Part shown: one piece after another, positions 19,609-39,870 of the stretch
Layout of the letters: each line of letters begins with the position of its first letter
Position numbering within the stretch: position 1 is the first letter of the stretch
From: Rhodocyclaceae bacterium
GTDB taxonomy: Bacteria > Pseudomonadota > Gammaproteobacteria > Burkholderiales > Rhodocyclaceae
Length of the DNA stretch: 64,000 nt
Assembly (NCBI GenBank): GCA_043761745.1
Contig: JAYUNL010000175.1
Location: forward strand, 13,047 to 77,046
Reading direction: 5' to 3'
Notes under the pieces: generated by a model
Database searches by the model: none
What the model was told of the DNA's origin: nothing
Seen by the model: only the letters and a program-made list of their open reading frames with translations
Translations under genes and position numbers: made by a program

Positions 19609-19677
19609 GCGCGCAAGGCCCGTCGTTGTTACAATACGCGCTGTTGAATCACCTGTTTTCAGGTTGCTAGTCGCTAA

Positions 19678-20598
19678 ATGAACTCACGTCGTCTACAACA
19701 TTTTCTGGCGGTCTATGAGCATCGCGGTTTCGGTCGCGCGGCCGAAGAACTGCATGTGACCAAGCCGGCCCTCAGCAAGAGCATACAGTTGCTTGAAGAG
19801 GAGCTGAATGTCGTACTGTTCGAGCGTACCGCGTCGGGTGTTGTGCCTACGCTGTATGCCGAGACGCTGTCCTTGTATGCAAAAGCGGTCGAAGCGGAAA
19901 TGCGCAACGCCACTCGCGAAATCGCCAGACTGAGCGGCGCAATGAAGGGCGAAGTGAAGGTCGGCATCACGCCGAGTGTCGCGGCGTATCTGATGCCGCG
20001 TACCTTCCTCAAATTGCAGAATGAGCGCCCAAGCATCACTTTCAACATCGTCGAAGGCATCATGGATCACCACCTGCTGGCGTTGCGCCAAGGCGATCTG
20101 GATTTCGTGATCGGCGGCTGGGTACCCGGTGTCTATCCCGATCTCGCCACCGAAGTGGTGCAGCGTGACGACGTGCGCGTGTTCGCCGGCGCCAAGCATC
20201 CGCTGGCGGGTAAAAAAAACGTGTCTCTGAAATCCCTGCTGGATTACGCTTGGGTGCTGCCACCACCCACGCAATTCTGGTTGCAGCTATTCGAAAAGAC
20301 CTTCGTCTCGCATGGCTTGCAGCCGCCCATTCCAAACGCGGTCACCAACTCGCCAAGCTTCATCAAGGCGACTTTGCTCGATCACAAGTACCTGAGCGCG
20401 CTGCCGGCGCGATCACTGGAAAGCGAGACTCACTTCGGGGAAATTGTGGCGCTACCGGTCGCGGAAATGGCTATCACCATCGATATCACCGTCAGCTATC
20501 GCAAGCGCGATGAGCACCTCACCGCCTGCAATATGTTCATCGCCGCGCTGAAAACCGCCTGCCAAACGTCGCCAGCCCTGGCGCGCGCGGCCTCCTGA
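19678..20598 (+). CDS. LysR family transcriptional regulator
   Basis: 306 aa; N-terminal HTH FGRAAEELHVTKPALSKSIQLLE plus a LysR substrate-binding domain. Confidence 0.9.
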   Translation: MNSRRLQHFLAVYEHRGFGRAAEELHVTKPALSKSIQLLEEELNVVLFERTASGVVPTLYAETLSLYAKAVEAEMRNATREIARLSGAMKGEVKVGITPSVAAYLMPRTFLKLQNERPSITFNIVEGIMDHHLLALRQGDLDFVIGGWVPGVYPDLATEVVQRDDVRVFAGAKHPLAGKKNVSLKSLLDYAWVLPPPTQFWLQLFEKTFVSHGLQPPIPNAVTNSPSFIKATLLDHKYLSALPARSLESETHFGEIVALPVAEMAITIDITVSYRKRDEHLTACNMFIAALKTACQTSPALARAAS

Positions 20599-20639
20599 AG
20601 CACGCTCGGCGCATCGCGTAACAACGGCACTCGGTCAGA

Positions 20640-22136
20640 TTAACTCTCGGCGCGTGATACCAACGTGGTTGGCAGCGGCTTTTCGCGCAGTAACAAGGCC
20701 AGCACAAATCCCGCCGCCGAAAATATCCCCGCCACCAGGAACAGCGGCTTTAACGCGCTGACATAGGCTGCGATGTACAAACTTAGTTGCGATTCCGGAA
20801 GCGATCTGAGTTGACCGATATTGGTGGCGACCGCATAGCTGAGGCCATGCGGTGCCAGTTGTTCGAGCGCGCTCTGAAGGCCGTTGGTGAAAATGGTGCC
20901 GAAGGCGGAAACGCCCAAGGAACCGCCTAGCGAGCGGAAAAGTACGATGCCTGACGTAGCCACACCCAGCTCTTCCTGAGGTACGGCGTTTTGCGCCGCC
21001 AGCACCAGCACCTGCATGGTCAGCCCGAGACCGAAACCCAGTGTGAGCAGGTAAATACTCACCGCGAGCTTGCCGGCATCCGCCAGATTGTTGAACAGCA
21101 TCCAATAGGCGCCCGACACCAGGAACAAGCCAATGATCGGGAATATCTTGTAAAAACCAAAGCGGCTGATCATGACACCGCTTACCGCCGAGGCGACTAT
21201 CATGCCGCCCGTCATTGGAATCAGTTGCAGGCCTGAAAGCGAAGGCGACATGCCTTTGACGACCTGCATGTAAAGCGGCAGGAAGGTCACCGCGCCGAAC
21301 ATTGCGACACCTACCACCAGACTCATCGAGCAGCACACGGCGAAAATGGGATTGCGAAAGAGCTTAAGAGGTACGATGGGTTCGGGCGCACGCCTCTCGA
21401 CGACGATGAAGGCGATCAACAGGCCCAGGGTCAGCACTATCAGGCCAAAAGTCTGCGAAGACGTGGCGGCAAGCGTGGCGCCGCCCGGATCGGCGAGCAG
21501 CATGACGCAGGTAAGCATTGCGGTAAGCAGCAGCGCGCCCAGATAATCGACCGACAGTTCGCGCCGTGTCACCGGTGTTTTGAACGCAATCGCAATCACC
21601 GATAAGGCGACGAGGCCCAGCGGAAGATTGATATAAAAAATCCAGCGCCAGGAAAGATGCTCAACAAAATAACCGCCAAGCAAAGGGCCGGCAACGGTCG
21701 ATACTCCGATGACCACGCCGAAGAAGCCCTGGTATTTGCCGCGATCGCGTGCCGGCACGAGGTCGCCGATCACCGCCATGACGGTCACGACCAGGCCGCC
21801 CCCGCCGGCACCCTGCAAGGCGCGAAACAAAACCAATTCGAGCATGCTATGACTGATGCCGCAGAGGGCTGAGCCGAGTAGGAAAAGGCAAATCGCGGCC
21901 TGCAAAGTGATCTTGCGACCATACAGATCGCCCAGCTTGCCGTAAATCGGACCCACTACCATGCTCGCAAGCAGGTAGGCCGCCGCGACCCACGACAGAT
22001 GATCCAGGCCGCCCAGGTTATCGACGATAGTGGGCAGCGCAGTAGCAACGATGGTTTGGTCTAGCGTGGCGAGCAGCAAGACCAGCGTCAGCGCTGCAAA
22101 GATAATACCGGTGTTGTGGGGGTGCTCGTCGCTCAT
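20640..22136 (-). CDS. MFS efflux transporter, DHA2 (EmrB/QacA-like, 14-TMS) family
   Basis: 498 aa; LATLDQTIVATALPTI and GKLGDLYGRK motifs typical of DHA2 exporters. Confidence 0.85.
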   Translation of the reverse strand: MSDEHPHNTGIIFAALTLVLLLATLDQTIVATALPTIVDNLGGLDHLSWVAAAYLLASMVVGPIYGKLGDLYGRKITLQAAICLFLLGSALCGISHSMLELVLFRALQGAGGGGLVVTVMAVIGDLVPARDRGKYQGFFGVVIGVSTVAGPLLGGYFVEHLSWRWIFYINLPLGLVALSVIAIAFKTPVTRRELSVDYLGALLLTAMLTCVMLLADPGGATLAATSSQTFGLIVLTLGLLIAFIVVERRAPEPIVPLKLFRNPIFAVCCSMSLVVGVAMFGAVTFLPLYMQVVKGMSPSLSGLQLIPMTGGMIVASAVSGVMISRFGFYKIFPIIGLFLVSGAYWMLFNNLADAGKLAVSIYLLTLGFGLGLTMQVLVLAAQNAVPQEELGVATSGIVLFRSLGGSLGVSAFGTIFTNGLQSALEQLAPHGLSYAVATNIGQLRSLPESQLSLYIAAYVSALKPLFLVAGIFSAAGFVLALLLREKPLPTTLVSRAES

Positions 22137-22189
22137 GGGGGATTGTTTTTGCAGCAGGAGGGGGCTCCCGCGTAGTTAGTATTTATAGT

Positions 22190-23197
22190 TTATGACAAAG
22201 GCAAATAGGCCACTGCTTTCAGTGCGTGGCAAGCGGCCTGATGCTGTACCGTCGCGTGCTCAGCTACCACCATCAAGTGCGGCACCTCTTCGAGACAGCG
22301 CATCTCCGCCAGTGGACAGCGTGGTGCGAACGCGCAGCCCTTGTTCGTTGTTGAGGTGGTCTCAGCATCCTTGACCGAAATCGCTCGCATTTCGATGCGC
22401 TCGAACCGTGGCGACGCCGCCACCAGCGCGCGGGTGTAAGGATGCTGGGGCGCGCTGAGGACTTCTTCCGTCGGCCCCTGCTCAACAACGCGGCCCAGGT
22501 ACATGATGATCAGATAGCTCGTCACATGCCGCAGGATCGCCAGGTCGTGGGCAATCATCAGATAAGTCAGGCCGCGCTCTTCCTGTAGATCGAGCAACAG
22601 GTTGAGGACCTGACTGCGCACCGACACATCGAGTGCAGAAACCGGCTCATCAAGAATCAGCATGCTCGGATTGACAACCAGCGAGCGCGCAATCGCCACG
22701 CGCTGCTTCTGGCCGCCGCTCAATTCATGCGGGAAGCTCAAGCGCAATTGCGGCGAGAGGCCAACGCGGCCGAGCAAATCGTCGACGCGGCGATCAATTT
22801 CCTCTAGCGTGGTGTCTGGCTGTTGTACCACCAGCGGCTCGGCAATGATGTCGCGTATGCGCATGCGCGGACTCAAAGCGCCAGAACTGTTTTGAAAAAC
22901 GGCTTGCACCCGACGACGATAGGCCATCAGCTCACGGCCTTCGGCGGAAGCGATGTCCTCTCCAGCAAAACGAATTTCGCCATCGGTCGGACGATCCAGG
23001 CGCAGAATGATACGCGCCAAGGTGCTCTTGCCGCTGCCGCTCTCTCCGGCGATGCCCACCGACTCGCCCTGCCTCACCACAAAGGAAATGTCGTCGACGG
23101 CGCGCACAATGTTGTGGCCGCCGCGCCGTTGATGGCGCAGCACAAAGGTTTTTCCTATGCCGCGAACTTCGAGCAACGGCGGGTTCATTTGCCACAT
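22190..23197 (-). CDS. ABC transporter ATP-binding protein (DppF/OppF-like)
   Basis: 335 aa; Walker [10 protein letters not shown], signature LSGGQKQRV, and a C-terminal oligopeptide-type extension with Cys residues. Confidence 0.9.
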   Translation of the reverse strand: MWQMNPPLLEVRGIGKTFVLRHQRRGGHNIVRAVDDISFVVRQGESVGIAGESGSGKSTLARIILRLDRPTDGEIRFAGEDIASAEGRELMAYRRRVQAVFQNSSGALSPRMRIRDIIAEPLVVQQPDTTLEEIDRRVDDLLGRVGLSPQLRLSFPHELSGGQKQRVAIARSLVVNPSMLILDEPVSALDVSVRSQVLNLLLDLQEERGLTYLMIAHDLAILRHVTSYLIIMYLGRVVEQGPTEEVLSAPQHPYTRALVAASPRFERIEMRAISVKDAETTSTTNKGCAFAPRCPLAEMRCLEEVPHLMVVAEHATVQHQAACHALKAVAYLPLS

Positions 23198-24252
23198 CCT
23201 TCTACACCAGTAGCTACGCTATTCAGTCGCTGGAGCGTGACCGTATTGGTGGCGTCTGCATGCGCAGCGGCATCGGGCACATGCAGCCAGCAGGCCACTG
23301 TATCGCCGTTGACGTAGTAAACGGTCGGTGGATATTTGGCGCGACAAATGTCCGCCGCCTGATCACAACGCGGCGCGAAACGACAACCCACGGTGGGCGC
23401 ACGCACGCTGGGCGGCTCGCCCGGGATCTGGTACAAGCGTCGCGTGCGCGGGCCATCCAGATGCGGCACGGCGAACATCAGCGCACGCGTGTAGGGGTGG
23501 CGCGGCTCGCGCAGTATTTGCGCGGTGATACCTGTCTCAACAACGCGGCCGGCATACATCACGGCAACACGATCGCAGGTCTCGGCCACAATGCCCAGAT
23601 CGTGGGTCACCAGCAGCAGGCTCATGCCTTCCTCGCGCCGCAGTTGGTCGAGCAGGCCGAGGAATCGCGCCTGCGTGGTCACATCGAGCGCCGTGGTCGG
23701 CTCGTCGGCAATGAGCAGGGCTGGATGACGCGCCACCGCCATGGCTGCCGTGACGCGCTGGCACATGCCCCCGCTGAATTCGAAAGGATAGGAATCGAGC
23801 CGGCTGGCTGCATTGGTGATGCCGACTCGCTCCAGTGCTGCTTGCGCCTGTCGGCGCAAATCCGCCTTGCCGGCGCCCGGCTGGGACAGACGTAATGCTT
23901 CGATCAACTGATTGCCGATGGTCAGCACCGGATTCAGCGAATTAAGCGGGTCTTGCAGGATCATGCCGATTCTGCGCCCGCGCACCTGCTGCATTTCTTC
24001 GGGCGACTTGTCGAGCAGATTTTCGCCGTCCAGCAGAATCTGCCCGCCTTCGATAACTGCGGCAGGACGCAGTTCGACACGCATGATGGCTTGGCAAGTC
24101 ATGCTCTTGCCGCTGCCGGATTCGCCCACCAGCCCCAGCGCCTCGCCGCGCCGAATACTGAAGCTAGCGCCGTCCACCGCGCGCACCGTACCGGCGCGCA
24201 TATGCACGTAGGTCCGCAGGTCTATGATGTCGAGCAAGATGTCATTGCTCAT
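23185..24252 (-). CDS. ABC transporter ATP-binding protein (DppD/OppD-like)
   Basis: 355 aa; Walker A GESGSGKS, signature FSGGMCQRV; overlaps the downstream ATPase gene by 13 nt. Confidence 0.9.
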
Positions 24253-25187
24253 AGCTGGCTCAACCTCGGGTCAAGCCGGTCCCGCAGCCAGTCGCCAAGC
24301 AGATTACTCCCGAGAACAGTCATGACAATGGCAATACCGGGTACGGTCGGTATCCACCAGCCTTGCGACATGTAGAGCTTGCCATCGGAAATCATCAGGC
24401 CCCAGGCGGATGCGGGCGGCTGGATGCCCAGGCCCAGGAAGGTCAGCGCCGCTTCGAGGCCCACCGCAGCGCCGAGTTGTAGCGTTGCCAAAACCACCAC
24501 CACGCTCAGCAAGTTGGGCAGCACGTGGAGCCGCACAATGCGCCAGCGGCTGGCGCCGGCGACGCGCGCCAAGGCGACGTAATCGCGCTGCATAAGGATC
24601 AAGGTCTCGCCGCGCACGACGCGGGCGTAGGTGGCCCAGAAGGTGACCATCAAGCTGGCGATTACCGTGGTCAGCCCACCGCCGATAACGGCGGCCAGCA
24701 ACACGGCGAGCAGTATGGTGGGAATCGCCAACTGCATGTCGACCAAGCGCATCAACAACTCGTCCACGGCGCCGCGAAAATAGCCGGCAGTCAAGCCGAT
24801 CGCCGTACCGAAAGCGCCTGCCAGGGCAACGCCAAAAAAAGCCACCGCCAAGGAGTTGCGCGCACCGTCGATGAGGCGGCTCAGCAAGTCGCGACCGGTA
24901 TGGTCGGTACCCAGCGGATATGCCCAGGTGCCACCGGCGAACACTGGTGGCTGTAGCGCGTGGACGGGGCTGATCAAGGTCGGATCGTGCGGCATCAGAA
25001 AAATGCCGAAGAATCCAAAAATAAGAATCGGGGCGAGCAGCAGCAGCGCCAAGACAGGTACGCGGCGAACGCTGCGTCGTTTCTTCCTGACCGTGACGGT
25101 GACCGCCTCCATTTCTTCGGGCGCCGGGACGATCCGGGTAATTTCGCCACGGCCTAGCGGCGTATTCAAGGAGGACAGCTCACTCAT
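24249..25187 (-). CDS. ABC transporter permease (DppC/OppC-like)
   Basis: 312 aa from the Met at 25187, which overlaps the DppB-like stop by 8 nt. Polytopic, with a family-5 system permease layout. Confidence 0.85.
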   Translation of the reverse strand: MSELSSLNTPLGRGEITRIVPAPEEMEAVTVTVRKKRRSVRRVPVLALLLLAPILIFGFFGIFLMPHDPTLISPVHALQPPVFAGGTWAYPLGTDHTGRDLLSRLIDGARNSLAVAFFGVALAGAFGTAIGLTAGYFRGAVDELLMRLVDMQLAIPTILLAVLLAAVIGGGLTTVIASLMVTFWATYARVVRGETLILMQRDYVALARVAGASRWRIVRLHVLPNLLSVVVVLATLQLGAAVGLEAALTFLGLGIQPPASAWGLMISDGKLYMSQGWWIPTVPGIAIVMTVLGSNLLGDWLRDRLDPRLSQL

Positions 25188-26097
25188 TGCGGATCCTCGG
25201 GTCGAGCACGCCATACAACAGGTCGACGCCCAGGTTAATGGTGATGAACATGGTTGCGGTAACCAGCACGCCGGCCTGTACGGTGGGATAATCCCGTGCA
25301 CCGATGGCGGAGATCATGAGCTGGCCAACGCCGGGCCAGGCGAAAATGGATTCGATGACGACCGCACCGCCCAGCAAGGCACCAAGATTGAGCCCCGCGA
25401 AGGTAACCAGCGGGATCAGCGCATTGCGAAAAGCATGTTTGACGATCACCACCTGCTCCGGATTTCCTTTCACGCGCGCCAGTTTGACGTAGTCGCTTTC
25501 GAGGACTTCGAGCATGGAGCTGCGAGTCAGTCGCATGAAGGCCGCGATGGAAAACCAGCTCATGGCAATGGCCGGCAAGATCAGGTGCGCCGCCGAGCCG
25601 GAACCACCCGTCGGTAGCCAGCCCAGCTTCACCGCAAACAAGAGCTGGAGCATGATGGCCACCCAGAAGCCGGGCATGGCTTGCCCGACCAGGGCGAAAA
25701 CCGAGGCACCAAGATCGGTCGCCGAGCCCCGGCGTCTGGCCGCCAGTATCCCCAGGGGTACACCGATCAGCAATGCCAACGAGAAGCCGGTAAAAGAAAG
25801 CATGATGGTCGAGGGCAGACGGCTCATCACCAGATCAAGCGCAGGCACGCCGTACTTGATTGAATCGCCGAAATCGCCCCGTACGGCATGTTCAAGATAA
25901 GCCAGATACTGCATGGGCAGCGACTTGTCGAGCCCGTACTGCACTCTCACTGCGGCGATTTCTTCCTGGCTCGCATCCAGACCTACAAGCAGATACGTCA
26001 CATCGCCCGACAAGCGTGTCGCCATGAAGGTGATGAGGCTAACCGCGAACAAGGCGAGCAGCCCGAAGACCAGGCGGCGCATGACATAGCGTGCCAT
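25180..26097 (-). CDS. ABC transporter permease (DppB/OppB-like)
   Basis: 305 aa; MARYVMRRL... N-terminus and C-terminal DLLYGVLDPRIR, typical of DppB/OppB permeases. Confidence 0.9.
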   Translation of the reverse strand: MARYVMRRLVFGLLALFAVSLITFMATRLSGDVTYLLVGLDASQEEIAAVRVQYGLDKSLPMQYLAYLEHAVRGDFGDSIKYGVPALDLVMSRLPSTIMLSFTGFSLALLIGVPLGILAARRRGSATDLGASVFALVGQAMPGFWVAIMLQLLFAVKLGWLPTGGSGSAAHLILPAIAMSWFSIAAFMRLTRSSMLEVLESDYVKLARVKGNPEQVVIVKHAFRNALIPLVTFAGLNLGALLGGAVVIESIFAWPGVGQLMISAIGARDYPTVQAGVLVTATMFITINLGVDLLYGVLDPRIRNE

Positions 26098-26144
26098 GGT
26101 TAGCGCGCCTTCCCTGCCCCTTGTCGGGCTCCATGCGGATCTGT

Positions 26145-26171
26145 CGCGTCTAGCGCGTCTAGCGCGTCTAT
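26145..26171. repeat. short tandem repeat, 3 x 9 bp (CGCGTCTAG CGCGTCTAG CGCGTCTAT)
   Basis: Read directly; lies in a 337-bp non-coding gap between the hydrolase gene and the DppB-like gene. Confidence 0.85.
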
Positions 26172-26434
26172 CGTCGAGCTTGAGTACTTCATCCGCCGAA
26201 ACCTCCGGCTCACATCATACGACATCATATTCACAATTCATAAACGCTGGACGACCGAACGTCTTCAACCATTCCAAACAGCATGGCTGTCTTTCGATGC
26301 GAACGGTGTATTTTGGCGCGCCCTGTTGGAGCTACGCCGGCGAGAAGTGATGCACTGAAGCGATACGCTTCCCAACCACTCCGCTCGCCGCGTCGCCAGC
26401 TTACAGCGACACGGCGACACGGGTACTCACAGGC

Positions 26435-27385
26435 TCATTTACGTGCGGTCTTCTTTAGCGTCTTGCCAAAATTCTTCGTTACCCAAGCGGAGACAACCTC
26501 CGCATATTTGTCGGCCGTGCCTATAAAGAGATGATTCCCACCTTCGATCCAAACCAGTTCCTTTTTCGGACTGTTGGTCAGGCTCGCCAGTATCTCTTCA
26601 GCATTTTTGGGCACCGCTGTTTCGTCTTTCGTGCCATGCACGATCAATACCGGTAGCGTAATGTCCTTGCCGAACTTTACGGTACCAGCGTTACTTTCCT
26701 GCGGGTTACCAAAGACATCCACCCAGGTCGCCGCGGAAAATTCGAAGACGCGCCTCGGCCCTCCCCACTGATAACTGCTCAACTCCTTGCCGCGCCCGGC
26801 CTTGACGTCTTCACGACGCTTGGCGAGAAAATCTTCGTACTGAGCCCTTTCTGCCTCATTCCAGCGCATTTGCGCTTCCTGATAGGGCGACGTAATGCCG
26901 GCGCTCACGATGATCCCCTTGACCATCGGCTCGTGCGTCTGCGCCATGTAGTAAAACGCCCGCGCCGAACTCAGGGAATGGCCGAGAAGAATGATGTTGG
27001 TCAGCCCTTTTTCTTTGGCGTAAGCAACAATCGCCGCGATGTCCTTTAGATACTCGTCGGACTTCGCATAGATCATGCCGTTGGCGCCGGCCGTTCTAAG
27101 ATTGAAGCTGAGGAAGTGATAGCCGTTGCGGTTGAGGGCTAGCGCCAAGGGCGCCATGTCTTGGGAACTGGCGAACGCGCCCGGGCCACCCGGGAGGTGA
27201 ATGACCACCGCCGTGGATTTGACGGCCGGCCGGTAATGCAGACCAAACAGCGGCACGCCATCCTCGGTCTTGACGCCAACCAGTTCCGCCAAGGGTGGCG
27301 CGGTAATCGCCGAGGCTGTTGCTGTTCCAATGGACAGCAACAGTGCAACCAGACAAAACACTTTCAAACTGCGTAGCATGTTCAT
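26435..27385 (-). CDS. secreted alpha/beta hydrolase
   Basis: About 316 aa from the Met at 27385, with GGAGAG upstream. Signal peptide MNMLRSLKVFCLVALLLSIGTATASA. Nucleophile elbow LLGHSLSS. Confidence 0.75.
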   Translation of the reverse strand: MNMLRSLKVFCLVALLLSIGTATASAITAPPLAELVGVKTEDGVPLFGLHYRPAVKSTAVVIHLPGGPGAFASSQDMAPLALALNRNGYHFLSFNLRTAGANGMIYAKSDEYLKDIAAIVAYAKEKGLTNIILLGHSLSSARAFYYMAQTHEPMVKGIIVSAGITSPYQEAQMRWNEAERAQYEDFLAKRREDVKAGRGKELSSYQWGGPRRVFEFSAATWVDVFGNPQESNAGTVKFGKDITLPVLIVHGTKDETAVPKNAEEILASLTNSPKKELVWIEGGNHLFIGTADKYAEVVSAWVTKNFGKTLKKTARK

Positions 27386-27483
27386 GAGCATCTCTCCATT
27401 CGGAAAATCGACTTTCACATGCGCGTTGCGCCCGTGCACGTCGTGTCAGTTTGAGAAGCGATCTATCGGCGTGCTTGTGTGGT

Positions 27484-28524
27484 TTAGCCTTGCTGCTCGC
27501 GCTCGTAGCGCACACGCCCGACCCAGAACTCGGCATCGGGTTCGCGTGGTTCGATGCCCATCGCGCGCAACTGCATCTTCCGCGCTTGCATCATGCCGGG
27601 ATGCAGGCGCAAGGCGGGCTGGCGCATAGTGCCGCCGTTGCCGCCAACAGACCAGCTGATGTACTTGCCCAACGGCCAGTGGTACATGCCAATGTCACCG
27701 CCACGCGAAATGCTGCTCGCCATAACCGCGTTGCCCTTGGCGATGAGCCAATAAATATCGCGCGCCTTGTCCAGCTCGCCTTTGATAACGTGGTTGTAGT
27801 ACTCGACGAGATAAGGCTTCTCCGGCGACTGCCACATTTCCCACGAGCCGCCGCCCCACCATTGCGCACCATAATTTTTGTGCAGCATGGGGAATAGGCC
27901 CATCAGCCAAGGCGTGCCCACGTTGACCTGTACGCGGTTACCGAAGCGCTCGAAGCATTCGAAAGTCATTGCTGCGTCGGCGAAACCGACCTTGATCGAC
28001 ACCACGTTCGGGATGTCGGCGATTTTTTCATAGATATCAAACGGCACTTGGCTGGGGTGGAAACGAATAAAGTCAAACTTGTCGCTGGCATACATGACCA
28101 GCCCAAGGTTGGTCGACTCGGCAAGCTGCAAGGTACGTTGCAGCACATCGTCGGGCGACTTAGGGTAATAGGTTTGCGGATAGCCGAGCAGCGCATGGCT
28201 TGCGCCGCACTTTTCCGCATGCGCCAGCAATTCGAGGCTTTCGTCGAAAGAGTTGTTGAGCAAGGTGAATGAGACATTGATCTTGCCCTTGGCCTCGTCG
28301 CAGGCAATACCGATGAAACGCTTGGCCTCTTCCGTCGACAAGCCGGTTTCGACGGCGCACATGGTGGAAAAGAAGCCGTGCTTGATGGCTTGGCGCACGT
28401 CGTAGCGTATGCCCTCCTCGTCCAGATCTTTCAAATCCGCCGTAAACGACGGGATCAGTGCATTCTCAATGCCTCGCAGCGCGTCTTTCGCCCACTCTTT
28501 ACGTTCGTTTCTAGTCACTGTCAT
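27484..28524 (-). CDS. divergent dihydrodipicolinate synthase/N-acetylneuraminate lyase (DHDPS/NAL) superfamily protein, paralog 2
   Basis: 346 aa from the Met at 28524, with GGAAGGA upstream. DHDPS-like order of elements with a lysine at NVVSIKVG. The usual GTTGE motif is replaced by AVETG. Confidence 0.65.
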   Translation of the reverse strand: MTVTRNERKEWAKDALRGIENALIPSFTADLKDLDEEGIRYDVRQAIKHGFFSTMCAVETGLSTEEAKRFIGIACDEAKGKINVSFTLLNNSFDESLELLAHAEKCGASHALLGYPQTYYPKSPDDVLQRTLQLAESTNLGLVMYASDKFDFIRFHPSQVPFDIYEKIADIPNVVSIKVGFADAAMTFECFERFGNRVQVNVGTPWLMGLFPMLHKNYGAQWWGGGSWEMWQSPEKPYLVEYYNHVIKGELDKARDIYWLIAKGNAVMASSISRGGDIGMYHWPLGKYISWSVGGNGGTMRQPALRLHPGMMQARKMQLRAMGIEPREPDAEFWVGRVRYEREQQG

Positions 28525-28611
28525 GTTGCTTCCTTCCAATTCTGATTGCTACTCTGGTTGCTCTCTGTGCAATGGTCCGAGCCGCGCCGCGAGGGCCGAC
28601 TCGCGTAACGA

Positions 28612-29652
28612 TTATTTCTTGCCCTGACGCGCCGCCTCGGCGCGGCCCAGGAAGAACAGGTCGTTTGAATCCGCGCAGTCGACGCCAATCGCGCGCAGTC
28701 CACCACGGATAACTTGCAGATCGCGTTCATAGACGCGCATGACAGGCTGGCGCGTCATGCCGCCATTGCCTCCGCTCAGAAATTGCTGGAATTTGAGCAG
28801 CGGCCAGTGGTACATGCCAGTGGGCACCAGCGGGGCCATGACGCGCATCATGGCGCCCAGGGCCGGCGCCATCTGCCAATAGACCTTCATCGCTTCTTCG
28901 GTCTTGCCTTCGAGCAGCAGGTTGAAAAATTGAACGGCATAGGGCTTCTCGGGCGATTGTAGCGCCTCGACAGTCCAGGCGCCGCTCCAGCGCACGTCGA
29001 AAGACCGGCGCAACATCGGGATCATGGCGAGGTTCACCGTAGTGACCAACAAACGGTCACTGAAGCGCTGAAAGCACTCCAGTATCATGCCGGCGTCCAT
29101 GCCACCGAGCTTCATGGCGACGATGTTGTCGAGGTCGGCGAGCTTCTCGTAGGCCTCCATCGGCACATTACTGGAATGCAGGTGCTGGAAAGCAAATTTG
29201 TCGGAAATGAAAAGGTAGATGCCAAGATTGGTGGCATCGGCGTGCTCGCGAACAAAGCGATACACATCATCCTGGTTGCGCGGGGCAAAGCTTTGCGGAT
29301 AACTCAGTAATGCATGTGTGGCCCCGACCGACTCGGCATGTTGCAGAATTTCTATATTTTCCTGCGCGGATTCGGCTGTGAGAGAGAAGGCAATGCCCAG
29401 CTTGTCGCCGGCTTCGTCGACCGCGATGGACAGCATGCGTTTCTTTTCTTCCAGGGTAAGGCCAGTCTCCAGCGCACATAGGCTGGAAAAGAAGCCGTGG
29501 CGTATGCTTTGACGAACGTCGAGACGGATGCCTTCTTCGTCGAGTTCAGTCAGATCGGCGTTGAACGAAGGCATCACGACGTTTTCAAAACCGCGAAAAT
29601 GCTCGCGCGCCCATTGCTTGCGTTCTTTGCTCATAACTTTAGCGTGTGCCAT
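28612..29652 (-). CDS. divergent DHDPS/NAL superfamily protein, paralog 1
   Basis: 346 aa from the Met at 29652, with GGAAG upstream. Collinear with the neighbouring paralog; shared blocks are LDEEGIR-DVRQ, HGFFS, ETGL, SPEKPY, GMYHWPL and GGNGG-M-RQP. Lysine at NIVAMKLG. Confidence 0.65.
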   Translation of the reverse strand: MAHAKVMSKERKQWAREHFRGFENVVMPSFNADLTELDEEGIRLDVRQSIRHGFFSSLCALETGLTLEEKKRMLSIAVDEAGDKLGIAFSLTAESAQENIEILQHAESVGATHALLSYPQSFAPRNQDDVYRFVREHADATNLGIYLFISDKFAFQHLHSSNVPMEAYEKLADLDNIVAMKLGGMDAGMILECFQRFSDRLLVTTVNLAMIPMLRRSFDVRWSGAWTVEALQSPEKPYAVQFFNLLLEGKTEEAMKVYWQMAPALGAMMRVMAPLVPTGMYHWPLLKFQQFLSGGNGGMTRQPVMRVYERDLQVIRGGLRAIGVDCADSNDLFFLGRAEAARQGKK

Positions 29653-29796
29653 ATGACTTCCTATTTGATGCTGACTTAGTTTGAAGTGGTTTAAAAGGGA
29701 GCTATTTCGCGGCAGCGCCGCAGCCGGCGATGGAAACATCGCGCAACAGCATCAGGTCGTAGGTGCCCAGCGTGGGGGTAAATTCGACGCAGCGCT

Positions 29797-31272
29797 TCAT
29801 GCCGTAAATATGCGAATGGTCCACAGCGGGATGTAGCGCATGTCCTTGTGTGCGGCCTGGCCAAGCGCACGAATCATCTCAGCACGAACCTTGGTATCCG
29901 GCGTGCCGGCCATCTGTAGCGTCATGCCGTTAATTTCCGGATTGGAATACCAGGCGAACGGTGTCACGCGACTGAAGTGAGTCAACAAGCCGCCAGACGA
30001 CTCAGAGGTGCCGGCAATGGCGCCGATGAAGACGGCGACGTAGTCCATATCGGGGTTTTTGCTAGCCTGTAGCACCCACTTGATGAACTGCGGACCTTCG
30101 GTCGGCTTGGCCGTCGCTTTGATCCCCACCTTGTTCAGGTAGAGGGCGACCGCCTCGGCTGTTTCCTTCATGCCGGTCACCGCCCCAGAGATGTAGGGCA
30201 GATCGAACTGAAGATCGGTCACACCGGCTTCTTTCAGCAGTTGCTGAGCGCGGACGGGATCATACGGATAAGGCTTCAGATCGGGATCGTAGCCAGTATC
30301 GTTGGGCGCCAAAAAGGGATAGTGCTTGGGATAGCCGCGCAGGATGTCCTTGACGATAGCGTCATGGTCGATGGCCAGCGCGATCGCTTCACGAACACGC
30401 GGGTCGGCCCATGGCGACTTGGGATTGTCCGTCTTCAGCGCCAGGAAAACCGTCATACCGGCGGGCGACAGCGTCTTGGTCTTCAAGTTGGGCGATGACT
30501 CGATTTCGCCGACCAAGGGGAAAGGCACTTGCATGGCCATATCAGCTTCACCGGCGCGAAGCTGAGCGACACGCGTGCTGTCCTCGGTGACGAAGTTGAA
30601 GCGCGCATTCTTGACTTCAGGCTTCTTGCCCCAGTAGCCGTCGTAACGCTCCAGATCTACGTAGCGACCACGTGTAAGGGCGGTAATCTTATACGGCCCA
30701 GTGCCGATAGGCTTGGCGCGGAATTCCTGTTCACCCACTTTCTCGAAGTAGGCCTTGGACAACACGGCGAAGCCGCCGTAAGGGATAAAGCCGAGATCAG
30801 ACTTGCCGAAAGTGATGTGTACCGTATGGGCATCCACCGCTTCGAGCTTTTCCAGAGAGCGAGACACGCGGGTGCTGAAGCCCCCTTTCACCATTCGGTC
30901 CCAACTGTAGATAATATCGGCCGAGGTCATCGGCGTGCCATCGTGGAAGGTGACGTCCTTGCGCAGCTTGATGGTCAGATCCTTCGCGTCCGGCAACATG
31001 ACCCAGGATTCTGCTATGCCTGGCTTGATGCTGCCATCGAAATTGCGATCGAACAACCATTCATAAACGTTGAACACGACCGCCGAAATTTCCGAAGGCA
31101 ACACGGTTGTTGGATCGTAAGTCTCACCAACCTGGCGGATATCGACGATGAAAGGGTTATTCACACCTGCATCGGCAGCGGCGCGATTTTCGCCTTGTTT
31201 TGAACAAGCAACTAGGCACACGCCAAGAGCCAATATAAGCAATTGCGGCAAGCGCGAAGACAAGCTAAACAT
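29797..31272 (-). CDS. ABC transporter substrate-binding protein, family 5 (peptide/nickel/opine type), lipoprotein
   Basis: 491 aa; lipobox LVAC in MFSLSSRLPQLLILALGVCLVACSKQ; family-5 SBP resemblance throughout. Confidence 0.88.
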   Translation of the reverse strand: MFSLSSRLPQLLILALGVCLVACSKQGENRAAADAGVNNPFIVDIRQVGETYDPTTVLPSEISAVVFNVYEWLFDRNFDGSIKPGIAESWVMLPDAKDLTIKLRKDVTFHDGTPMTSADIIYSWDRMVKGGFSTRVSRSLEKLEAVDAHTVHITFGKSDLGFIPYGGFAVLSKAYFEKVGEQEFRAKPIGTGPYKITALTRGRYVDLERYDGYWGKKPEVKNARFNFVTEDSTRVAQLRAGEADMAMQVPFPLVGEIESSPNLKTKTLSPAGMTVFLALKTDNPKSPWADPRVREAIALAIDHDAIVKDILRGYPKHYPFLAPNDTGYDPDLKPYPYDPVRAQQLLKEAGVTDLQFDLPYISGAVTGMKETAEAVALYLNKVGIKATAKPTEGPQFIKWVLQASKNPDMDYVAVFIGAIAGTSESSGGLLTHFSRVTPFAWYSNPEINGMTLQMAGTPDTKVRAEMIRALGQAAHKDMRYIPLWTIRIFTA

Positions 31273-31363
31273 ACTCGGTACCCCTCACTAATGGATAGCA
31301 GGCAAAGCGCGGCGCCCACATAAATACCGGATACCGCGCAAGACCGACAGCCTCCTCAATTTT

Positions 31364-31387
31364 GCGATGGATTATTGGCGATGGATT
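31364..31387. promoter_or_regulatory. direct repeat GCGATGGATT x2 (14-bp register) upstream of the SBP gene
   Basis: Read directly at 31364-31373 and 31378-31387, about 90-115 nt upstream of the SBP start codon on the minus strand. Confidence 0.3.
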
Positions 31388-31557
31388 CTTCGTTCACGCG
31401 CTGACTTCGCTGCCACTCTGGGCAGTTGCGGAAAATGCGACCACGATGGCGAAATACGACAATTGGGTGTCTCCTCCGTCCCGTGGGCCGGGACCTCTAT
31501 GTGTCCGTGCCCACGTCCCCCACTCGTGTTCTACCGTTGCCGATCAGCCCAAAACAA

Positions 31558-31974
31558 TCAGGCTTTCTCGTGATCCAGTTGATGCTGGGCCATATCCAAG
31601 TAATCCTGACGCACCGGCGCGAAGATATCCACACCAAAGCAGACTTCATCGCCGAGCACGCGACCAATATGCGGCATGTTGCTCGGGATATAGACGATCC
31701 AGCCCGGCTCGAGAATATAAGTGCCCTCGCAACCGTTGTCGCCCAGCGTCACTTCAACCTTGCCGGTGATCAGCAGAATCGACTGATCCCAGGGATGCTG
31801 GTCCGGCTTCATCGGCTCCGCAGTACGGCCCGTCATTTCGCCGCTGAAGGGCTTGGCCCAGGCGAACTTCAGGATGGCGTTGTCCATGAGAACCGCCGTC
31901 TCTTCCATGAGGCCGCCGAAGCGCGATTGTCTCGGCAGTTGGCGTGCATCGACGCAATAAGCTTTCTTTGGCAT
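31558..31974 (-). CDS. cupin domain protein
   Basis: 138 aa; beta-barrel cupin-like core (HPWDQSILLITGKVEVTLGD...GWIVYIPSNMPH). Confidence 0.7.
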   Translation of the reverse strand: MPKKAYCVDARQLPRQSRFGGLMEETAVLMDNAILKFAWAKPFSGEMTGRTAEPMKPDQHPWDQSILLITGKVEVTLGDNGCEGTYILEPGWIVYIPSNMPHIGRVLGDEVCFGVDIFAPVRQDYLDMAQHQLDHEKA

Positions 31975-32011
31975 TGCTGTTTTCTCCTTCGATAAAGCGT
32001 GACTGGTTAAG

Positions 32012-34540
32012 TTAAAAATTCGCTCTCAATGTCGCACCAATAGTGCGCGGGCGATTGGTCCAGAGCGTCGGAGCCCCTGCGCTACCCACGTCCGTTTGCC
32101 GGGTCACACCGAACTTATCAGCCAGGTTGGTAACGAACATCGTGACGGAAAAATTGTCATTCAAGTCCATGCCAGCACGTAGGTTGAATTCGCCGTAGTT
32201 GCCGCTGGTGTAGGGCGGCGTCTGCGTGGCAAAGTCGGTACTAGTATTTTCCATGCGCCCAATGTAGTTCGCTTCCCCGCGCACCCAAGCCGGAAGTCCA
32301 AGCAAGTCCAGCTTATATTGCAAACCGAGAGAGGCTTGCGACTTCGGCGTTCCATCAATAGTCTGACCGGAACTGATATGCAGAACTGAATTGGCGTCCT
32401 TATATTTCGGCCGGGTGAAGGACAATGAAGAATCGAGGGTTAGGCTCTTGGTCAACCTCGCGCTCAGTTCGAACTCCGCGCCGTCAATTTTTGCATCGCC
32501 GGCGTTGATCTCTTGGACGGAGTTACAACCAGAATTGCCGCCCGCCACACCCGATAGGATGATGCCGTTTTGCACGTCCTTCCAATCGATGTGATAGACA
32601 GACGCATTCAAAGTCACACCCTCGGCAAGGGTCGTCTTGGCGCCGATTTCATAACTCCATAAGTTATCTGGCTTGGTCGGCCCCGCCCTATCGGAGCCGG
32701 CGAACCCCAAAACCGCCAGGTTCGAAGCACAACCCGTCTGACCAACGAGCGGCACCGCAGTATTAACGTTGCCAGTACGATAGCCTTCCGCAGCCGTGAA
32801 ATAAAGCATCTGACCCTTTGACGGTTTCCAGCTCACATTCACCTTAGGCAAGAATTTGTGATCATTGTGGGTAAATGCATCCGGACCGGTTCCCACAAAC
32901 AGGAAACCCACTTGATTTCCGTTCATAGTTTGTTCCTGCCAGAGCTGGCGGAAACTGAAGGCCGCATTAACGGTGGGCAGAATGTCATAGGCAACTTCAC
33001 CAAAGACAGCGGTCTGCTTGTCCACGTACTTGAAGTCCTGATTGGTCAAGACCGTCGTCGAGGGAAGGGTAGGCCAACTGCCCAAATAACGAATATTCAA
33101 CCCCGAATCATCGTGTGTCAGCGTGGTGTAATGCTGATCGATTTTCGAATAGAACAACCCGGCCAGCCAGGTCAGCGGACCGGTGCTCGGCGAGGTCAGA
33201 CGAAATTCCTGCACAAAGGTCTTGGGATTGTCTATACGGTCCACCGCAATAGGAAAGGAATCCCAGATTCCCGTAACGAAAAAGGAATGGAAGCCGATAT
33301 CGGTAGACAACTTTTGCGTGCGCTCCCACGAAGACGTCGACGAGGTCAACTTGGCAAAGCCCATATCGTAATTGAGCACCAAGTTCGCCAAAGAAATTCT
33401 ATCTGACGACCCTATCTTGGCCGCATTGGAATACTCAAATTTCTTTGGGTCCGTCGAATATGGGAAAGCCAATTGTCGAGGAGTAAGGGTGGGAATCCCT
33501 AGATTGACAACGGTGCCACCGGGCACGTAGGACATGCCCGGGTTGGGACCGGGATTATTTGGAATCGCCATGGCCCAGCCGGGCCCATCCTGGTTCTGAT
33601 GCTCTTGAGCAAGCATCAACTGCGCATCAAAAACGTTGGATGGCTTCCATGCAAAGATGATACGTCCACCGTCGATATTTACATCGTTGGACTCGCTGGT
33701 ATTTGCCGGCGCTGAATAATTCGCAATCGCGGGATTATTGTTAAGACCTTTAAGCGGAGGTAAGAAACCGGGGAAAGGCGGAGTCGGAAGTTTGCCCCCC
33801 GTCAATACGACGGGAACCGGAGCGAAGGCGGGGGGAATCGAACCAATCCTCGGCCCGCCAGCATAAACGTTCTTGTACCAGCCGGACTGCTTGGAATCAT
33901 AGCCAGTAATGCGCACGGCAAACTCTGGCGAGAATGGCAGATTCAACGTAGCCTCAACATCATAGTTACCACCCGCATTGTGGGTGTCCGATCCAGTGAT
34001 CGAAGCGGAGCCAGACACGCGATTGAAGGTAGGCTGATTGGGCACATTCTTGATCGCACCACCCAGTGAATTCGAGCCATAGAGCTGACCTTGCGGGCCG
34101 CGCAGCACCTCGATGCGATTCATGTCGACCAGTTGGAAGTTGTAGCTGCCATTGACGGAACGGCCCGTATGGATGACAGGCACATCTCCCAAATAGATCG
34201 CTGTCGTTGGAGACAAGCGCGAGGTGCCATTGCCAACGCCGCGCAACTTCACTTCGTTACCTTGCCCACCTTGGTCTGCAAACGCTGCACCTGGAACTGA
34301 TTGAAGATAGGTCTGGAAGTCAGTGATGTTGCGCTCTTCCAGCGCCTTTTCGCCGATTGCGGTGACAGACACGGGCACGTCTTGGAGGCGCTGCTCGCGT
34401 CTTTGCGCGGTAACCACCATTTCTCGAATATCAGTCTGCAACACCGGCTCGGCGGCAAACGCCAGGCTCGTGGTTACGTCGGCCGCAGCAAAAGCACCCA
34501 GAACTGCGAGAGATACCCCCGTCATCTTGATCCGCTTCAT
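32012..34540 (-). CDS. TonB-dependent outer-membrane receptor
   Basis: About 842 aa from the Met at 34540. Signal peptide and plug region (VVTAQRREQRLQDVPVSVTAI, RIEVLRGPQG). C-terminal terminal-Phe barrel ending ...TLRANF. Confidence 0.9.
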   Translation of the reverse strand: MKRIKMTGVSLAVLGAFAAADVTTSLAFAAEPVLQTDIREMVVTAQRREQRLQDVPVSVTAIGEKALEERNITDFQTYLQSVPGAAFADQGGQGNEVKLRGVGNGTSRLSPTTAIYLGDVPVIHTGRSVNGSYNFQLVDMNRIEVLRGPQGQLYGSNSLGGAIKNVPNQPTFNRVSGSASITGSDTHNAGGNYDVEATLNLPFSPEFAVRITGYDSKQSGWYKNVYAGGPRIGSIPPAFAPVPVVLTGGKLPTPPFPGFLPPLKGLNNNPAIANYSAPANTSESNDVNIDGGRIIFAWKPSNVFDAQLMLAQEHQNQDGPGWAMAIPNNPGPNPGMSYVPGGTVVNLGIPTLTPRQLAFPYSTDPKKFEYSNAAKIGSSDRISLANLVLNYDMGFAKLTSSTSSWERTQKLSTDIGFHSFFVTGIWDSFPIAVDRIDNPKTFVQEFRLTSPSTGPLTWLAGLFYSKIDQHYTTLTHDDSGLNIRYLGSWPTLPSTTVLTNQDFKYVDKQTAVFGEVAYDILPTVNAAFSFRQLWQEQTMNGNQVGFLFVGTGPDAFTHNDHKFLPKVNVSWKPSKGQMLYFTAAEGYRTGNVNTAVPLVGQTGCASNLAVLGFAGSDRAGPTKPDNLWSYEIGAKTTLAEGVTLNASVYHIDWKDVQNGIILSGVAGGNSGCNSVQEINAGDAKIDGAEFELSARLTKSLTLDSSLSFTRPKYKDANSVLHISSGQTIDGTPKSQASLGLQYKLDLLGLPAWVRGEANYIGRMENTSTDFATQTPPYTSGNYGEFNLRAGMDLNDNFSVTMFVTNLADKFGVTRQTDVGSAGAPTLWTNRPRTIGATLRANF

Positions 34541-34800
34541 GAATCGCCCCCCAAAGAATTGAGCCAAAAAAAAGACGTTTTTGTTGTTTTTTTAACGCCA
34601 GTGTCGACAGACAGCATGCGCACAGCTTTCGAAGCCTAACACGCTCGCACGGAAACTGAATATTGATATTAAGTTTGTGTCGGTAACAATTTTTTATCGC
34701 AACACCGTAAAACTATAACACCCTTTCACGCGGCCCCGTTCTGATGGGGGCAACGTCCGTCTTCCCCTTGCCAGGCGGTTGGAGGACTTCCATCTCCAAT

Positions 34801-34852
34801 TTGGTGCGCCCTGCCGTGCGCACCAAAGAAAACAGGCAACCCGCAGGTTGCC
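34801..34852 (-). terminator. tandem hairpins downstream of hppA
   Basis: GGCAACC-cgca-GGTTGCC (34835-34852) and TTGGTGCGC-N9-GCGCACCAA (34801-34827). On the minus strand the first hairpin is followed by TGTTTTCTTTGG. Confidence 0.6.
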
Positions 34853-34880
34853 CGTTATGGTGCCGCAGTCGATGCCGGGG

Positions 34881-36947: not shown

Positions 36948-37086
36948 GAACTCACTCCTGTAACGATAAATTTCTGACGGCTTACGCCATCCCCAACTAC
37001 CAGCCGATGTGGACTTCGTTGATGAGCGCCGCGGCTTTTATTGCGCATCGGAACGGGTGTCCGCTCCGATGCGCATCCGGCTACTC

Positions 37087-38349: not shown

Positions 38350-38393
38350 CCGCAAAATTATAGCATTGCCCCAGAGGTGTTTCGGGCGCCCAC

Positions 38394-39870
<1,477 letters not shown>

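Follow-up and report, generated by a model that had tools for sequence, protein, structure and literature searches.

What does a bacterium import and cleave with a locus that joins a TonB-dependent outer-membrane receptor, a dipeptide-type ABC importer and two proteins of the dihydrodipicolinate synthase/N-acetylneuraminate lyase (DHDPS/NAL) fold? The question is raised by positions 20640-34567 of a 64,000-nucleotide stretch of DNA from a Rhodocyclaceae bacterium (assembly GCA_043761745.1, contig JAYUNL010000175.1, positions 13,047 to 77,046 of the forward strand), here called the window. Our analysis makes it rather probable, at the level of a general scheme, that this chromosomal region serves catabolism by 'import-and-cleave', with a small anionic organic compound as its substrate, and is organized around genes for a small cupin and the two DHDPS/NAL-fold proteins, A and B. 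An earlier note on the same DNA had suspected an undescribed system, and this was borne out: searches of Pfam, NCBIfam, the PDB, a plasmid collection and the literature returned no characterised homologue, structure, pathway or paper that gives the module a function, and none of the databases and papers searched names a substrate of the locus. The enzymes scored far below all NCBIfam equivalog cutoffs and their homologues carried no names.

The open reading frame listing and the Pfam and NCBIfam profile searches placed eleven genes on the minus strand at 20640-34567 together with a convergent LysR gene. Every gene listed in the earlier note was found, in the family and on the strand given there, but its count of ten was one too low. 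The features, from the upstream end of the locus to the downstream end, are:

34831-34856, minus strand: terminator-like hairpin after the H+-translocating pyrophosphatase (H+-PPase) gene, with an 11-bp stem followed by a T-run
34632-34700, minus strand: conserved block upstream of the receptor gene, from a three-way alignment of the window with the sister loci L005 and L008
32012-34540, minus strand: TonB-dependent outer-membrane receptor, 842 aa from the ATG at 34540, with Sec signal and the Pfam domains Plug and TonB_dep_Rec_b-barrel
31558-31974, minus strand: small monocupin, 138 aa, first member of the trio (Cupin_2, 34.6 bits)
29797-31272, minus strand: family-5 solute-binding lipoprotein (SBP_bac_5, 262 bits; lipobox LVAC)
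28612-29652, minus strand: DHDPS/NAL-fold protein A, 346 aa (PF00701, 32.7 bits)
27484-28524, minus strand: DHDPS/NAL-fold protein B, 346 aa (PF00701, 43.2 bits)
26435-27391, minus strand: exported, esterase-like alpha/beta hydrolase (Hydrolase_4, Abhydrolase_1, DUF1749)
25180-26097, minus strand: DppB, ABC permease (BPD_transp_1; the permeases and ATPases together match BPD_transp_1, ABC_tran and oligo_HPY)
24249-25187, minus strand: DppC, ABC permease
23185-24252, minus strand: DppD, ABC ATPase
22190-23197, minus strand: DppF, ABC ATPase
20640-22136, minus strand: DHA2-family efflux protein of the major facilitator superfamily (MFS; TIGR00711, 260 bits against a cutoff of 230)
19678-20598, plus strand: LysR-type regulator, convergent (HTH_1 and LysR_substrate)

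The neighbourhoods of B in other genomes define what belongs to the system. With B as the query, 302 homologues were recovered, all either unnamed or labelled 'DHDPS family', and a scan of 185,579 species genomes retained 76 distinct loci, almost all derived from metagenome-assembled genomes (MAGs). Twenty loci carry both A and B and are the basis of the counts given here for trio loci; the order of the genes was read among loci whose B homologue is at least 56% identical to the window's, where the cupin is followed by A and A by B throughout. The cupin is present in 19 of the 20 loci, the lone exception being a truncated 4.7-kb contig. The stop codon of A overlaps the start codon of B in 10 of 16 loci, as is typical of translationally coupled subunits. 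Around this trio the remaining genes vary: Dpp-type permeases occur in 12/20 loci, the TonB-dependent receptor in 11/20, the family-5 solute-binding protein (SBP) in 10/20, a glycoside-pentoside-hexuronide (GPH, MFS_2) symporter in 5/20 and the exported hydrolase in 4/20. The Dpp-type ABC importer and the GPH symporter are mutually exclusive across the 20 loci, and this interchangeability fits an uptake for catabolism. The earlier note had placed the core in the receptor, the SBP and the DHDPS-like pair; the neighbourhood survey points instead to cupin, A and B, which also pair with the GPH symporter. The hydrolase is an accessory. By its TIGR00711 score the exporter belongs to the DHA2 type with 14 transmembrane-spanning segments, and a crude hydropathy scan gave about 13-16 peaks. 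Its inclusion in the system did not hold up: it occurs in 3/20 trio loci (the window, L005 and L008), all from the window's own lineage, and probably stands outside the conserved system.

Two sister loci retain the gene order and the flanks of the window at about 80% DNA identity; one (L005) comes from a JGI metagenome, the other (L008) from the MAG 'Gammaproteobacteria bacterium Co_metawrap_971'. The strongest evidence for a functional linkage is that the gene set survives rearrangement in a second gammaproteobacterial MAG (L016/L087; 66-76% amino-acid identity). The genes there run SBP, exported hydrolase, cupin, A, B, DppBCDF, receptor and LysR, which agrees with the proposal that the locus is one functional unit. 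This MAG lacks the MFS exporter and carries in addition a third DHDPS-like paralogue (C), an IclR gene, an ADC-like gene, UbiD and a UbiX-like gene. The trio together with Dpp is also kept across phyla; trios were found in Proteobacteria, Actinobacteria (Gaiellales) and related lineages, and the cupin clusters come almost all from uncultured bacteria. Orthologues of the receptor (41-85% identity) adjoin family members in L005, L008, L016, L012, L013, L071 and L078, and orthologues of the LysR protein (43-56% identity) do so in L003, L016, L020, L041, L049, L057, L071 and L078; in L071 and L078 both accompany more distant members of the family.

The ADC-like and UbiD proteins of L016/L087 (1895-4381) are 75-81% identical between the gammaproteobacterial MAG and Gaiellales MAGs (L014, L018, L019, L041, L049), which is above the identity of A or B. 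Such values suggest either transfer across phyla or mis-binning.

Proteins A and B are paralogues with about 45% identity, A always being encoded upstream of B. The 'two divergent DHDPS-like enzymes' of the earlier note diverge from canonical DHDPS and not from each other. Both pass the threshold of the superfamily in Pfam (32.7 and 43.2 bits for A and B, cutoff 22.1). For the named equivalogs (DapA, NanA, KdgD, HpaI-type aldolase) the best scores of A and B were 25-34 bits against NCBIfam cutoffs of 206-397, and the best match of the family profile in the PDB had an E value of 1e-11 (about 1e-11 to DapA and 1e-9 to NanA). On account of these weak profile matches and sub-cutoff scores, the A/B family, for which a search of 1.84 billion clusters at 50% identity gave 118 representatives at E <= 1e-30, is placed by its sequences as a deep, separate branch of the DHDPS/NAL superfamily. 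The AlphaFold2 model of B (pLDDT 90.6) matched NanA, DapA and PhdJ in Foldseek with TM-scores of 0.65-0.72 (query-normalised) and 0.71-0.83 (target-normalised) at 13-21% identity, which confirms the DHDPS/NAL fold; of the fold matches listed, PhdJ scored highest by query TM (0.72).

Active-site positions were read against DapA of Escherichia coli (Lys161 and Tyr133; Tyr137 in NanA). On strand beta-6, an alignment of 35 sequences shows no variation at the Schiff-base lysine (K178 of B), and this residue is kept in all A-, B- and C-type sequences. The position of the catalytic tyrosine on strand beta-5 (Y145 in B) separates the types, with Tyr in 18/18 B, Phe in 16/16 A and Trp in both aligned C-type sequences. 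The pyruvate-carboxylate loop G-[ST]-[ST]-G-E is replaced in the family by (S/T)-(M/L)-C-A-x-E-T-G, in which Cys56 and Glu59 are near-invariant, and a family-specific motif GGNGGxxRxP lies near the C-terminus. We infer that A and B form a heteromeric complex in which catalysis would fall to B, with A as a partner lacking the tyrosine.

Relatives of A and B occur in further settings. C-type members of 385-414 aa (L003 14812-15978, P0107, P0196, P0198, P0201, P0206, P0211, P0229, P0239, P0241) keep the Schiff-base lysine, and many have twin-arginine (TAT) signal peptides; judged by these signals, a DHDPS-fold protein would here reside in the periplasm. TAT-exported family members sit beside family-5 binding proteins or in their place. 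In Halioglobus one C-type member follows DppBCDF, and no family-5 SBP gene was found within 10 kb on either side of B. In MAGs of Dehalococcoidia (L051, L068, L074) DHDPS-like paralogues alternate with family-5 SBP lipoproteins; a glycyl-radical-enzyme-like protein and its activase, identified by eye, lie nearby in L068 and L070, and UGSC-family and DUF6282 proteins recur among the loci L051, L068, L074 and L070. These loci look like an anaerobic relative of the window system. A second contig of the MAG of L008 (L044) holds a further family member in the window's own lineage, 41% identical to B. Its neighbours are an acyl-CoA-dehydrogenase-like gene, a protein that by eye resembles DUF1329, and an alpha/beta hydrolase with 35% identity to that of the window. 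The wider family most often pairs a DHDPS-like gene with an acyl-CoA dehydrogenase (ACAD), as seen in 13 loci. The plasmid collection held only homologues at about 30% identity in other contexts. In L084 and L085, on plasmids of the cultured bacteria Roseomonas mucosa and Bradyrhizobium, these stand with genes for an ornithine-cyclodeaminase-family protein, a semialdehyde dehydrogenase, an FAD oxidoreductase and an FCD regulator, a context that looks, from the genes present, hydroxyproline- or pipecolate-type. As members in cultured bacteria they are a possible tractable entry to the wider family.

The cupin belongs to a tight and rare family: among 5.8 billion proteins it formed 67 clusters, all at least 56% identical and none named. 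Its Cupin_2 score (34.6 bits) exceeds the threshold of 27.2. Residues D58, H60, D63, Q64, H102, R18, R50, R105, R122 and K36 are invariant, and the positions of the metal motif (H-x-H-x3,4-E...H) read D58-x-H60-x3-Q64...H102, again without variation. This invariant pattern, which includes five Arg/Lys residues, suggests an anionic ligand. The AlphaFold2 model (pLDDT 87.7) is that of a generic small monocupin, and the nearest structure is Sthe2323 (4e2g), itself of unknown function. An identity as KdgF was rejected; sequence searches up to E 10 gave no match, and the fold match (TM 0.67-0.69) was generic.

The predicted locations of the proteins agree with the compartments of the staged processing proposed earlier: the receptor is an outer-membrane protein, the hydrolase has a Sec-type signal (MLMNMLRSLKVFCLVALLLSIGTATASA in the window, with a Sec signal also in the L016 orthologue), the SBP is a lipoprotein, and cupin, A and B have no signal peptide. 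For the hydrolase, the best NCBIfam model was the esterase EstD and the best PDB entry the esterase 1zoi, placing it closer to esterases than to peptidases. PDB searches with the receptor and the hydrolase gave generic matches only, those of the receptor being confined to the plug domain; the receptor remained below every NCBIfam cutoff, the best being the TonB-siderophore subfamily with 149 bits against 223.5. The nearest solved relatives of the SBP were GsiB/YliB, 5u4o and AgaA, and its scores against the peptide equivalogs were all below the cutoffs (GsiB 147 vs 594, DppA 99 vs 1005, OppA 90 vs 947). DppBCDF came nearest to the models Opp2B/NikB, Opp2C/NikC, OppD and DppF, each time below the cutoff. 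By its Pfam domains the importer is assigned to the general PepT-type ABC family, and to this level only.

The LysR protein scored best against the PcaQ model (143 bits, under its cutoff of 304) and is probably the cognate regulator. The block of about 70 nt upstream of the receptor gene, common to the window, L005 and L008, contains TTGT-N7-ACAA at 34689-34675, which resembles the T-N11-A motif of LysR-type transcriptional regulators (LTTRs), and the palindrome AATAT-CA-ATATT at 34670-34659; it may function as an LTTR site. Searches for metal-regulator boxes gave 12/19 as the best Fur match, 7/12 for NikR and a poor match for Zur, none of them convincing. An Rfam scan of 19000-35500 detected no riboswitch and no other RNA family.

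All locus genes are real: synonymous codon differences far exceed non-synonymous ones in every one of them when the window is compared with its two sister loci. Each gene is under strong purifying selection. B is the most constrained, with 62 synonymous vs 2 non-synonymous and 106 vs 9 differences to the two loci, a constraint equal to that of the H+-PPase. Several true start codons lie downstream of the longest-ORF start; A, for example, has 346 aa and not the 375 aa of its open reading frame. The reading frames of DppB, DppC, DppD and DppF (22190-26097) overlap, no convincing internal terminators were found within the gene cluster, and the hairpin at 34831-34856 would mark the upstream boundary of the predicted transcription unit. 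Gaps of 285 nt between cupin and SBP and of 337 nt between hydrolase and dppB could be sites of internal promoters; the latter gap also contains a short tandem repeat (TAGACGCGC, about 2.7 copies, at 26144-26170). Housekeeping genes border the locus, with MurJ at one end and H+-PPase, PPi-PFK, Adk, KdsB and LpxK at the other, and the G+C content falls to 53-57% at its lowest inside the locus vs about 59-61% in the flanks.

Three observations on the surroundings are recorded for themselves. The A-B segment (window 27484-29652 vs L005 8873-11041) has 94% DNA identity, the neighbours including H+-PPase and MurJ 72-89%, and the synonymous divergence of A and B between the window and L005 is about half that of housekeeping genes; the segment looks, from these values, recently exchanged between lineages. 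Directly upstream of the locus (34881-39050, minus strand) a row of H+-translocating pyrophosphatase, PFK-family and adenylate kinase genes forms a pyrophosphate-economy neighbourhood unrelated to the locus; the PFK-family enzyme we guess to be probably pyrophosphate-dependent. A GPH-family symporter (MFS_2, TIGR00792; 5835-7241, minus strand) lies among housekeeping genes (thiolase, CobD) and is 57% identical to the MFS_2 protein adjoining a DHDPS-like B in L001. Perhaps it imports the same substrate as the locus by a second route; it may equally be unrelated.

Elsewhere the trio keeps a characteristic genomic company. ADC-like Schiff-base enzymes occur near it in 7 loci. UbiD, either alone or accompanied by a UbiX-like gene, is found in 5, IOR-type 2-oxoacid oxidoreductases with a cyclase in 5 and Abhydrolase_3 esterases in 5, and in 5 loci an aldehyde dehydrogenase gene adjoins the cupin gene in divergent orientation. 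ACAD and OYE-type flavoproteins are also found nearby, as are an FAD_binding_3 hydroxylase with a NicX-like gene, SGL and SDR. In Halioglobus the trio is adjoined by two Amidohydro_2 genes and a PrpF gene. The accompanying regulators are of the IclR (7 loci) and LysR (6 loci) types. Locus L088 joins both kinds of context, as cupin, SBP, A, B and DppBCDF are followed directly by cyclase, IOR, esterase and SDR. Guilt by association thus reads these neighbours as a toolkit for unsaturated or (hetero)aromatic-derived 2-oxo acids, not for peptides or metals. Two candidate labels were set aside: a recurrent 255-aa neighbour considered as 2-oxopent-4-enoate hydratase and the representative of the NicX-like proteins both had no Pfam match at E <= 1e-5, and neither label was used as evidence.

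These elements can be combined into a working scheme. The substrate, possibly an ester or lactone conjugate, would pass the outer membrane via the TonB-dependent receptor and be de-esterified or opened in the periplasm by the exported alpha/beta hydrolase. The family-5 lipoprotein would capture the product for import by DppBCDF. In the cytoplasm, the cupin may isomerise it or open a ring, and the heteromeric A/B enzyme, of class I with its Schiff-base lysine, would hydrate the resulting 2-oxo acid and/or cleave it in a retro-aldol reaction to pyruvate and an aldehyde or acid. The PcaQ-like LysR protein would switch the operon on. As to the substrate class, the neighbours of the trio in other genomes lead us to favour, tentatively, either a (hetero)aromatic-derived acid or an unsaturated one.

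Several points weigh against this interpretation. The window's own locus has no aromatic-type accessory gene, and family-5 SBP/Dpp systems are, to our knowledge, not known to carry aromatic acids. The chemistry is extrapolated from fold and neighbours, as no member of the A/B or cupin families has been characterised. The canonical G-[ST]-[ST]-G-E loop is missing in A and B, with C-A-x-E-T-G in its stead, and with the carboxylate loop replaced a pyruvate aldolase chemistry is not assured. The ligand set of the cupin (D, H, Q, H) is atypical. Finally, the GPH symporters and the NanA-like top matches suit a sugar acid equally well.

Among known pathways, the closest functional analogies to the proposed route, with no membership claimed, are NahD/NahE/NahF and LigI/LigU/LigJ/LigK. 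The hydratase-aldolases NahE and PhdJ of the lower naphthalene and phenanthrene pathways share with the window proteins the DHDPS/NAL fold, the Schiff-base Lys and Tyr and a length of about 330-346 aa, and the Nah sequence of isomerase, hydratase-aldolase and aldehyde dehydrogenase is paralleled by the cupin, by A/B and, in 5 loci, by the adjoining aldehyde dehydrogenase. The identity of NahE and PhdJ to the window protein, however, is only 13-14%. The window furthermore has two paralogous subunits, one without the tyrosine, is linked to a receptor and Dpp-type import, and contains no ring-hydroxylating or ring-cleaving dioxygenase. The isomerase candidate is here a cupin, whereas NahD is GST-kappa-like. 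With the 2-pyrone-4,6-dicarboxylate/4-oxalomesaconate/4-carboxy-4-hydroxy-2-oxoadipate (PDC/OMA/CHA) branch of protocatechuate 4,5-cleavage and gallate degradation, the scheme has in common a sequence of hydrolase, isomerase, hydratase and aldolase that is free of redox cofactors and leads to pyruvate. The PcaQ-like regulator of the window locus is a further likeness, as are the two Amidohydro_2 genes and PrpF beside the Halioglobus trio, families which we take to be those of LigI/LigJ and of LigU, respectively. In contrast to that branch, the window hydrolase is periplasmic and no window enzyme is homologous to its Lig counterpart; the analogy is functional only.

Most of the same parts could also serve the scavenging of an acidic sugar or ulosonic acid such as sialic acid, 3-deoxy-D-manno-octulosonic acid (KDO), 2-keto-3-deoxynononic acid (KDN) or a uronate. 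The receptor and a de-O-acetylating periplasmic esterase would then feed the SBP-dependent importer, anomerisation or ring opening would fall to the cupin, as to KdgF or NanQ, and A/B would be a lyase of the NanA or 2-keto-3-deoxygluconate (KDG) aldolase type releasing pyruvate and a smaller sugar. N-acetylneuraminate lyases do rank with the best matches of A and B in both sequence and fold, KdgF is among the fold matches of the cupin (TM 0.67-0.69), and the alternative importer is a GPH symporter. Some trios have genes for an SGL lactonase, an SDR and an aldehyde dehydrogenase in their vicinity, and the matches of the SBP include 5z99, 5yyb and 5za4, which we take to be SatA-type family-5 SBPs of Haemophilus ducreyi. 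The use of sialic acid through NanA and SatABCD likewise sets a DHDPS/NAL-fold lyase beside a family-5 ABC importer. Yet the DHDPS subfamilies are about equally far from A and B (E about 1e-11 for DapA and 1e-9 for NanA), the NanA equivalogs reach 30-32 bits against cutoffs of 281-382, the sugar-binding and G-S-T-G-E motifs of NanA are lost, and KdgF shows no sequence match to the cupin even at E 10. Neither kinase, epimerase, deacetylase nor sugar dehydratase was found in any trio locus; nanE, nanK and nagAB are absent, and cupin and paired subunits have no counterpart in sialic-acid use. UbiD/UbiX, IOR, ACAD, OYE and the PcaQ-like and IclR regulators are not genes of sugar pathways. We therefore hold a sugar-acid substrate to be doubtful. 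If the substrate were instead derived from a peptide or an amino acid (hydroxyproline, say, or something opine-like), it would be trimmed by a periplasmic S33-type aminopeptidase, imported by Dpp and converted by A/B, acting as an LhpC/KdgD-type deaminase or dehydratase, to 2-oxoglutarate semialdehyde. The Dpp/Opp type of the importer, the top Pfam match of the hydrolase (Hydrolase_4, 'serine aminopeptidase S33'), the aldehyde dehydrogenase gene adjoining the cupin gene in 5 trio loci and the ornithine cyclodeaminase-family, semialdehyde dehydrogenase and FAD oxidoreductase genes adjoining the Roseomonas and Bradyrhizobium plasmid homologues would suit such a route. But those homologues are only about 30% identical and have neither cupin nor A/B pairing, no epimerase, oxidase or ornithine cyclodeaminase gene was found in any trio locus, and a GPH symporter replaces the ABC importer in 5 loci. 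The best specific matches of the hydrolase are esterases, and the SBP scores far below the DppA, OppA and GsiB equivalog cutoffs. This route is improbable.

The peptide, nickel, opine and metallophore cargoes considered in the earlier note received no positive support, and the neighbours of the trio elsewhere point to the catabolism of unsaturated or aromatic-derived acids. In a metallophore locus, the DHDPS-like enzymes and the cupin would make an opine- or dipicolinate-like chelator, the DHA2 protein would export it, and the receptor with a NikA-like ABC importer would retrieve the metal complex. The layout, a receptor and a family-5 SBP-dependent ABC importer with an MFS-type exporter, does recall the Cnt (staphylopine/pseudopaline) and Nik loci; the permeases score best against nickel-type models (Opp2B, NikB/C), the receptor against the siderophore subfamily, and the AT-rich upstream palindrome gives a weak Fur-like match (12/19). 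All Nik and Cnt equivalog scores nonetheless fall short of their cutoffs, with CntA at 94 vs 800 and NikA at 137 vs 393, both far below, and with Opp2B at 315 vs 350 and Opp2C at 260 vs 300, close yet sub-cutoff. No nikR, CntL or CntM gene is present among the open reading frames of the locus, CntK is likewise absent, and no nicotianamine synthase-like gene or gene for nonribosomal peptide or NRPS-independent siderophore synthesis was seen. No convincing Fur, Zur or NikR box was detected, the regulators being of the LysR (PcaQ-like) and IclR types. Of the 20 trio loci, 17 have no such exporter, which is thus not conserved with the system, the trio also accompanies GPH symporters and catabolic enzymes, and in the Gram-positive Gaiellales it occurs without any exporter. 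A metallophore role is unlikely, and the full sequence of synthesis, export and retrieval has a very low probability. That transport genes and enzyme genes with no relation to each other lie side by side here by chance might be read from the 285-nt and 337-nt gaps and from the differing accessory genes among genomes. This reading is scarcely tenable against the gene set kept despite the rearrangement in L016, the trio and Dpp kept across phyla, the single strand shared by all genes and the overlapping dpp genes. Dipicolinate catabolism, considered for the link between DHDPS and dipicolinate, was dropped; the text of the published dip cluster paper (PMC11472048) mentions no dihydrodipicolinate, cupin, TonB or transporter.

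The preferred reading remains the import and cleavage of a small anionic acid. As every part of the locus belongs to a known superfamily, we regard its architecture as a familiar kind, not as categorically new. Unusual are the obligatory trio of cupin, A and B with a degenerate subunit, the TAT-exported relatives and the recurrent pairing with family-5 SBPs, even in Dehalococcoidia. It is possible, although we would not presume it, that cupin and A/B represent a new enzyme of several subunits within the class I aldolase superfamily, with a catalytic and a Tyr-less subunit and a remodelled carboxylate loop bearing a conserved Cys, and an undescribed catabolic route for an environmental (hetero)aromatic-derived or ulosonic-type acid, and that its periplasmic TAT members couple Schiff-base chemistry to a Dpp-type importer. 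We know of no described precedent for such a direct coupling in the periplasm. If the scheme is true, the organism would possess a full catabolic capability, consisting of receptor, importer, enzymes and regulator, to which no substrate has been assigned. The version in the window is convenient for reconstitution because it is a minimal form without accessory enzymes. Identification of its substrate would give a function to a deep branch of the DHDPS/NAL superfamily, including its periplasmic members, and would widen the range of cargo of Dpp-type importers and TonB-dependent receptors.

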